This document shows, in pieces, positions 3,001 through 4,497 of a DNA stretch of 13,222 bases. The stretch is from Candidatus Eiseniibacteriota bacterium (GTDB lineage: Bacteria > Eisenbacteria > RBG-16-71-46): positions 1-13,222 of the forward strand of contig JANMQY010000143.1 of NCBI GenBank assembly GCA_031370785.1, read 5' to 3'. The position numbers are program-made. How positions within the stretch are numbered: position 1 is the first letter of the stretch; every line of letters starts with the position of its first letter.

Positions 3001-4497
3001 ACCGGAATGACAGTGCGTGGGAGGCGAACGGCTCGCTCTTCCATGAGCGAGCCGCCGCAGTGAACTGGAGGAAAACAGCCAGCCCTAGCGCAAAGCCCCC
3101 AGCCCCCAGGCGAGACTCGTCGTCACCGCGGAACGCGGCAGATCGCGAGTCCGATTCGTCCGGCACATCCAGTGCCCCTCTAAACAATCGGGGATTGGCC
3201 GACGTGGAGCCGACCAATCCCCTGAGGACGTGCCAGGTCCAGATGGTTACTTCTTCTTCTTCGCAGCCTTCTTCTTCGTGCCCTTCTTCTTCGCAGCCTT
3301 CTTCTTGGCAGCCATTACGAATCACCTCCTCATTTCTGAACTCGATGCGACGGAGCGAACCCCGCCAGGACGTCGTTGGCGGCCGCGTTCTCTGCGGCCC
3401 TTGCGGCCCGCGCGCGAAGCACCCGAGTGCTTCGCGTGGCCTTGCATTCAGGATTAAGCAGCAGCTATGCCACGAGGCCGCGAGGTCTCTGGATTCTGCT
3501 CGCAAGATGATGTGTCGAATTAGATTAGTAATTTACGAGAGCGCGCGAAGCTCTGTGGAGAAGCGTGGAAAGCCGCGTGGATAAACCCCGTAACCGTCAA
3601 GTTTATTGCGGCTTACTGCGATTTCATTACGCAAGCGCTTGCGAATGAATCAATTGCCCGCGAGTGTCCAGAAATTTGTGGGTGTCAAGAGACTTGACGA
3701 CTTGGGTCTTCCTCGAGTCGGAGGCGACGAAGTTTCTCGATCAGACCCTGGCGCGAAATTCCGAGGATGCGCGCCGCGCGACTCTTGTTTCCCGCGGTGA
3801 GTCGCAACACTTCGCTGATGTGATCGGCTTCGATCTGCGCGAGCGTCGGCGATGCGATGTCCGAATCTCCGGCGACGCGTCGACCGGTCAGCTCGCGCGG
3901 CAGGTGCTCGACCTCGAGCAGTTCGCCATCCTCGAGCAGCGCGGCGCGCTCGATCAGATTGCGCAACTCGCGAACGTTTCCGGGCCAGCGATAAGTCGAG
4001 AGCAGCGGGATCGCATCGGGCGCGATGTCGGTGAACGCCTTCTGAAACTTCTGAGCGAACTCGGCCAGGAAGTGGCGGGCGAGTAGCAGGATGTCATCGT
4101 CGCGATCGCGCAGCGGCGGCAGATGGATGCTCACCACTTTGAGCCGGAAGTAGAGGTCGCTGCGGAACCGCCCGGCGCGCACTTCGGCGTCGAGATCCTT
4201 GTTGGTGGCGGCCACGATCCGGATGTCGACCGCGATGTCCTGCGAGCCGCCGACTCGCTTGAAGCTGCGGTAGTCGATGAAGCGGAGCAGCTTCGCCTGG
4301 GTCGGCAGCGACATGTCCCCGACCTCATCGAGGAACAGGGTGCCGCCGTCGCACAGCTCGACCAGCCCCTTCTTCATCTCCGAGGCGTCGGTAAATGCGC
4401 CCTTTTCATGGCCGAATAGCTCGTTTTCGAGCAGCGTCTCCTGGAACGAGGAGCAGTTGACCTCCATCAGCGGCGCGTGCGCCCGATCGCTCCGATA

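Follow-up and report, generated by a model that had tools for sequence, protein, structure and literature searches.

An apparently uncalled, sigma-54-linked polylysine microgene in Eisenbacteria that may encode a minimal histone-H1-like tail

Does a 22-codon, lysine-rich open reading frame (ORF) ahead of a UvrA-family gene in an Eisenbacteria genome encode a peptide, and what might such a peptide do? The frame (3247..3315, minus strand) lies in a window of 13,222 nt, the whole stretch of DNA analysed here, and has the highest lysine share among the short ORFs of this 3.44-Mb, 68% GC genome. The first-pass annotation had described it as a 22-residue Lys/Ala gene, which is borne out by the ORF itself and by in-frame orthologues at 30/30 loci. 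The predicted peptide, MAAKKKAAKKKGTKKKAAKKKK, contains 13 lysines in 22 residues, arranged as four XXKKK pentamers with small neutral spacers and no acidic residues, giving a net charge of about +12.5 and a pI of about 11. An extended Shine–Dalgarno (SD) site (3322..3330, minus strand) stands 6 nt ahead of the ATG and is kept in 30/30 loci, in agreement with the ribosome site claimed earlier; the whole genome has 13 SD-plus-ATG sites of this type. In a shifted frame, the AAG runs of 3247-3315 would read as poly-Glu; a conserved start for that frame is absent.

The region was matched in 40/41 genomes, a tally that includes the unpublished genome G026, which contributed no locus to it. All 30 top-matching loci carry a Lys/Ala ORF of 17–27 aa with the frame kept and indels in whole codons. 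Lysine is encoded by AAG in 389/389 codons, compared with a genome-wide AAA share of 9.2% in 1232 long ORFs; TAA is the stop in 26/30 (5.4% genome-wide) and GCT supplies 53/180 alanine codons (5.1% genome-wide), all of these being counts from kin rather than from independent loci. Ribosomal-cluster ORFs have 4.7% AAA, 3/19 TAA and 4.5% GCT, and the last value does not support high-expression codon bias as an explanation for the excess of GCT. Of the 46 separate loci that carry the 3' element described below, 28 encode 22-mers and 27 share a single register; these 27 were picked by register, so that the invariance of lysine among them is built in. Relative to the window, they show 35 synonymous and 27 non-synonymous codon differences, the latter almost all swaps of small spacer residues or conservative K>R changes. 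By codon position, the changes number 45 at the third, 25 at the second and 6 at the first.

A predicted sigma-54 promoter with the –24 GG and –12 GC elements at fixed spacing (3458..3472, minus strand) would place the transcription start at about 3446, and RNA contigs beginning at 3443 and 3436 give a weak hint of it. The site is one of 17 strict genome-wide matches and is aligned in 24/24 family loci, and rpoN is found in the genome; the promoter proposed in the first-pass annotation thus holds. A weakly conserved AT-rich patch (3503..3515, minus strand) resembles an IHF site, and three HU/IHF genes are present in the genome. The NtrC-type sigma-54 activator (receiver-AAA-HTH; 3685..5136, minus strand, likely start 5055) had been described as divergent from the microgene, which is wrong: it lies upstream on the same strand, and is co-directional in 27/30 loci, the other three being cut by contig ends. 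A PAS histidine kinase (5063..6223, minus strand) is its probable partner. With this site, its activator and the conserved coding signals, the evidence at sequence level supports the apparently uncalled polylysine microgene as a genuine, sigma-54-linked gene.

Sigma-54 control also appears from sequence comparison to be older than had been assumed. In other families, 13/23 syntenic loci have a sigma-54 site 450–530 nt upstream (background 0.13 per kb), before an extra receiver-domain gene. Because the sites precede that gene, the ancestral unit was probably promoter–receiver–polylysine, with the receiver lost in the window's family. Elsewhere in GTDB, a sigma-54 site lies within 300 nt of 4/86 polylysine loci, and on these matches the control is lineage-specific.

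The UvrA-family gene (127..2928, minus strand) follows downstream. Co-transcription of the microgene with uvrA or speD, as previously suggested, is not supported: an intrinsic-terminator-like structure lies between them (3181..3222, minus strand; 14-bp stem 3222-3190, weak U tract), and the RNA contigs from X5 and X6 cease to match at 3186 and 3160. The claim that RNA contigs from three studies cover the unit was reproduced in part. Of four runs compared, two, each from a different study, yielded contigs that span it and begin at 3443 and 3436, the third gave a shorter piece only, and the fourth (X2) gave an 8-kb flat, DNA-like contig that was left out of the evidence, as were 20 further listed runs. 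All stem from relatives, and strand and level are not readable from them.

The transcript has a 5' leader hairpin (3413..3436, minus strand) with compensatory changes. Past the stop lies an invariant 15-nt element (3226..3240, minus strand), able to fold locally into a weak hairpin (–3 kcal/mol) or to pair with the gene's own SD site (–14.7 here). Its 13-nt core is present in 57/59 genomes of family f1 and 5/6 of family f3 (G026 being one of the f3 genomes), and elsewhere is near control level. In viral contigs, the 15-nt element was matched 28 times, 0 behind a polylysine ORF, and these matches are therefore put down to chance. A consensus fold of 25 transcripts contains the leader hairpin, which covaries, the terminator, and a helix of the invariant element with the SD site. 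The last is favoured and invariant but without compensatory change, with a median p of 0.07–0.09 in related sequences and 0.275 at other loci; the modelled pairing is unproven and not general. A single fold also suggested that the 3' element pairs with the transcript 5' end, which was rejected as unconserved (median shuffle p 0.47). An Rfam search of the region gave a best score of 16 bits, nothing near a gathering threshold.

Across the phylum, a loose pattern was matched in 126/151 genomes (G026 included), a count that is too high because 12 of 30 inspected loci were unrelated ORFs and 18 were Lys-rich. At 15 of these 18, the same activator lies upstream of the gene, usually with a small receiver gene in between, and uvrA or the gene for a sugar epimerase comes next. 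The Lys-rich syntenic genes span 17–120 aa across the class and exceed 35 aa in 13/18, so that the 12–35-residue boundary previously drawn around the family does not hold. Four of 11 homologues have sub-cut-off matches to Pfam HC2 and NCBIfam hist_H1_lk_Burk; among the H1-like models tested (PF07382, NF038052 and NF038053), the best homologue scored 32.2 bits against a cut-off of 40, and 27.2 against 80. The 22-mer has no match in NCBIfam, as had been reported, nor in Pfam.

The series shares with Hc2 and BpH1 its Lys-rich pentamers, small neutral spacers, absence of acidic residues and length set by repeat number; it falls short of their model cut-offs, and of their length of about 150–240 aa with the 22 residues here and the 17–120 of its orthologues. 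The notion of an unrecognised family is weakened by this continuous grading into Hc2/BpH1-type repeat proteins, although look-alikes do occur across phyla. By sequence, the 22-mer works like a contracted, shortest form of the histone-H1-like kind, formal membership having failed. Orthology is demonstrated by sequence within Eisenbacteria, and convergence may account for the cross-phylum copies.

Exact matching did not find MAAKKKAAKKKGTKKKAAKKKK in a collection of 15 billion proteins that contained 3/3 control proteins of the contig, and 0/17 homologues of 35–120 aa were found there; filters, missed gene calls or both may be responsible. In the ESM Atlas, unnamed clusters of 42–49 aa lie close to a 47-aa orthologue, the recognition score being weak. 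A profile of 11 aligned peptides had no match in the protein collection or PDB, a result uninformative for low complexity, and a blastn search of the phage collection gave no match.

Known proteins offer close parallels. According to the available part of PMC2848022, Hc2 and BpH1 are number-variable pentamer-repeat proteins of about 150–240 aa, each pentamer containing two basic residues, and Hc2 binds both DNA and RNA. Chlamydia Hc2 (HctB; PF07382) and the Bordetella BpH1/Burkholderia H1-like proteins (NF038053) resemble the microgene product as stand-alone Lys/Ala/Thr/Val pentamers without acidic residues, and in pairing repeat-set length with an alternative sigma factor (sigma-28 for Hc2, in the part of PMC12282069 available). 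The microgene product differs in having 22 residues, three basic residues per pentamer and no other domain, in its sigma-54 promoter, and in scoring below every cut-off. Pseudomonas AlgP and PhaF KPAA tails and the linker histone H1 C-terminal tail are likewise disordered Lys/Ala repeats; these are Pro-rich and sit on folded domains, whereas the microgene would encode the tail alone, at about 60% Lys. H1-like/KPAA repeats bind DNA, RNA and polyphosphate, as described in the sections available of PMC9239181 and PMC12818456.

The reading preferred here, given a probability of roughly 60%, is that the microgene product would be a polycation equivalent to a minimal H1 tail and would bind nucleic acid, a reading in which both translation and function are inferred from sequence and analogy. 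The kinase/activator pair would turn on sigma-54 transcription of an mRNA of ~265 nt, from which a free, disordered polycation of ~2.3 kDa, in effect an Hc2/BpH1-type pentamer region reduced to four repeats, would be made in bulk. It would bind DNA and RNA without regard to sequence, neutralise charge and condense nucleic acid. Protamines and polyamines, themselves small polycations, neutralise and condense nucleic acid in the way proposed for the peptide; protamines are Arg-rich and eukaryotic, and polyamines are not products of the ribosome. More speculatively, the 3' element might damp or recycle translation by pairing with the SD site. In many relatives, read-through would add the pyruvoyl decarboxylase paralogue, so that peptide and a chemical polyamine supply may be co-induced. 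The coding-type conservation, strong initiation signals, sigma-54 site, terminator and orthologous series of 17–120 aa argue for this H1-tail reading, as do the affinity of H1-like repeats for DNA, RNA and polyphosphate, the dosage suggested by tandem copies and the tolerance of varied length. Against it, a peptide of 11–22 residues would probably bind far more weakly than Hc2, composition cannot separate DNA from RNA, the ribosome or polyphosphate as target, no curated model is matched above its cut-off, and the genome already has its three HU/IHF genes.

If translated, such microgenes would rank with the shortest genes conserved in prokaryotes and would represent widespread, overlooked nucleic-acid counter-ions in soil and groundwater phyla (Rokubacteria, Eisenbacteria, Acidobacteriota and Planctomycetota). 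They would add to bacterial chromatin or ribosome biology a layer of charge neutralisation not captured by inventories of folded nucleoid proteins. The available part of the nucleoid-protein review PMC11894785 does not mention Hc2, polyamines or protamines. A full-text search of a collection with few subscription journals turned up no paper on stand-alone polylysine genes of 11–28 residues; tables and supplements of smORF catalogues may hold unnamed entries. The natural series of 11–120 residues, together with cheap synthetic peptides, makes the minimal sufficient H1 tail directly testable.

A link to polyamines had been suggested by a second S-adenosylmethionine decarboxylase gene between peptide and uvrA. 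A speD-like gene is indeed intact there in 9/30 loci and decayed in one more. A family scan found a second class of speD-like match in 15/60 genomes, 13 of them placed by coordinates. In a tree from which fragments and duplicates were left out, and to which a long-branch warning applies, 12 linked copies form one side of a 100/99 branch and span two families; the microgene–decarboxylase link therefore appears old and repeatedly lost. Sequence evidence places it in those two Eisenbacteria families and no others. The linked paralogue forms a separate, long-branched, fast-evolving clade just under the TIGR03330 cut-off. The main paralogue precedes an agmatinase gene in 20/28 loci, and in genome G000 a DHS/SpeY homologue is present and a search for spermidine synthase gave no match; a wider search for the synthase found none in five second-copy genomes, and weak, partial, mostly long-frame matches (best 7e-24) in 45/61 genomes. 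DHS/SpeY and agmatinase are the context of the pyruvoyl arginine decarboxylase SpeDA, which a diagnostic proline divides from SpeD, in the part of PMC10407285 available. The neighbouring genes resemble SpeDA in being SpeD-homologous with this context (PMC10407285), and differ in the separate clade of the peptide-linked copy. The assigned S-adenosylmethionine decarboxylase activity is accordingly not upheld: judged by sequence, the linked gene is an old paralogue, probably of arginine-decarboxylase type. The hint at polyamines stands on that altered footing, and for those two families. At other loci, unrelated genes sit at the speD position behind the microgene (L007 and L013), namely those for a secreted coiled-coil protein and what we take to be a PaiB-like FMN-binding protein.

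The main speD-like/agmatinase operon is headed, after tRNA-Asp, by a gene for a polyacidic protein in 28/28 loci, and this protein stays before agmatinase in seven loci without a speD-like gene. In genome G000 (C84:97245-97478; L031:1175-1408, plus strand), it has 78 aa with a net charge of about –45 and a short basic N-terminus; the series runs to 74–87 aa with about 55–66% Asp/Glu, and the ORF is the genome's sole one of such kind. It has no NCBIfam match and falls in an Atlas cluster of 63 unnamed members. A profile matched 34/59 family genomes and missed known carriers, and so is unable to show absence. Basic and acidic disordered proteins thus head the two paralogous operons, and prothymosin-alpha with H1 provides an analogy for such a pair. 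By this analogy, the polyacidic protein is a possible counter-charge partner of the polylysine, and a concrete partner hypothesis for it. General physical linkage of acidic and basic genes was rejected, a scan of the polylysine loci having given a single archaeal case.

The cross-phylum spread previously reported was reproduced. A GTDB scan that demanded an SD core of five bases, a start codon and four Lys codons, and left the stop free, found at least 120 loci. Among the matches listed, 122 of 127 ORFs were closed, 105 did not exceed 35 aa (a share of about 0.51 being expected by chance), and 116 were pure basic repeats, 103 of them of 11–28 aa and 13 of 40–109 aa. The 103 short genes among these matches had an SD longer than demanded in 100, a final Lys in 93, a TAA or TAG stop in 99 and, by a crude rule, a terminator in 58. 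As a control, the SD-plus-ORF pattern in viral contigs gave 0/21 pure genes of 35 aa or less. Titles among the matches listed included Rokubacteria/Methylomirabilota, Planctomycetota, Acidobacteriota, Nitrospirota, Sumerlaeota, Eremiobacteraceae, Verrucomicrobiota, Thermoplasmata and Halobacteriales; longer polylysine forms carried the titles Myxococcota, Chloroflexota, Moraniibacteriota and Nanoarchaeota. Bdellovibrionota, named earlier, was absent from these, and some titles look unreliable (L193, though titled otherwise, has the Eisenbacteria-type locus).

Tandem arrays in which every copy has an SD of its own were found at 20/72 GTDB and 91/120 metagenome loci, which suggests that dosage of the product matters. 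Tandem microgenes of 11–15 residues (L111, L116, L121, L139, L142; L294-L413) usually stand before recG in Rokubacteria, and a conserved G-rich hairpin is present at 72/120 metagenome loci. The flanking ORFs scanned, 87 of 142 with family-f1 and redundant Rokubacteria loci omitted, included recG, parA, padR, lpxC, chaperonins, others and one agmatinase; none of the 87 was speD, lysine or Lys/Ala biosynthesis, ppk or pha. With neighbours varying so freely, the polylysine unit appears to stand alone. Archaeal-titled versions have 18–50 aa (L137, L144, L145, L156 and L165); in L145, a Lys/Glu peptide is paired with a poly-Glu peptide beside a thermosome gene. Away from the uvrA locus, a 25-aa copy under an Eisenbacteria title lies directly before agmatinase (L124:1512-2771), viral contigs L274, L277, L278 and L290 encode small basic proteins of 50–56 aa with the same Lys-rich start and a distinct body, and a 31-aa Lys/Arg ORF directly after an HU/IHF gene (G000 C45:59013, plus strand) resembles the small ribosomal protein bS22/AURKAIP1.

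A broader proposal, tentative and rather doubtful, joins these observations. Bulk polylysines of 11–28 residues from very strong and at times tandem microgenes would act as 'ribosomal polyamines' in many uncultured bacteria and some archaea, missed by gene callers and tryptic proteomics. Eisenbacteria would have built from them a charge-buffer system, in which polylysine heads one decarboxylase paralogue under sigma-54 and the polyacidic protein heads the other, with agmatinase, as a prothymosin-like sink or chaperone for peptide and polyamines.

An unlikely alternative is that the peptide tunes translation by binding rRNA, the exit tunnel or specific leaders, in a hibernation-like or PhaF-like manner. 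The PhaF KPAA region binds specific mRNAs and activates their translation (PMC9239181/PMC12818456, in the parts available), Hc2 prefers RNA and represses translation (PMC2848022, likewise), and the 3' element pairs with the SD site in the consensus fold. Nevertheless, a range of 11–120 aa is unlike that of fixed-size ribosomal peptides, a PDB match is absent and the pure peptides lack a ribosomal-gene neighbourhood.

Decidedly improbable is a starvation-induced organiser of polyphosphate or storage granules resembling the AlgP tail. Sigma-54 often marks nitrogen starvation, which would suit such a role. The spacing of polyphosphate granules needs the H1-like tail of AlgP (PMC9239181/PMC12818456, in the parts available), but AlgP also has a folded N-terminal domain, and ppk/pha genes number 0 among the 87 neighbours.

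A leader peptide sensing Lys-tRNA or polyamines, and thereby governing read-through to the decarboxylase or uvrA, is a poor candidate. A short ORF of one-codon runs, with an element 6–16 nt past its stop, then a terminator and in 9/30 loci a speD-like gene, has the layout of an attenuator. The consensus fold nevertheless lacks an antiterminator overlapping the ORF, orthologues of 80–120 aa and tandem copies would be senseless as leaders, downstream genes are unrelated (Lys/Ala biosynthesis 0/87), and the unit persists where speD is lost.

An RNA product (sRNA or ribosome decoy) with an incidental ORF, or a simple AAG repeat, is very improbable: the structured leader, the invariant 3' element and RNA contigs confined to the unit in two studies would suit it, but the frame, start, SD spacing and stop straight after the Lys run are all conserved, changes favour third positions, Rfam gave no near-threshold match and the 3' element is limited to the lineage while the ORF is not.

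A separate, conserved RNA of two hairpins with a CsrA/RsmA-type CANGGANG loop lies before uvrA (3020..3106, minus strand), in a single genomic copy and with no Rfam match. The loop matches the RsmA motif as given in the available part of PMC4353343. In relatives that retain the speD-like gene, the RNA overlaps its stop codon. A mere speD remnant was rejected as the sole explanation because the region covaries as RNA: eight pairs have changed on both sides, and 3/500 shuffles scored equally high. The genome also contains csrA.
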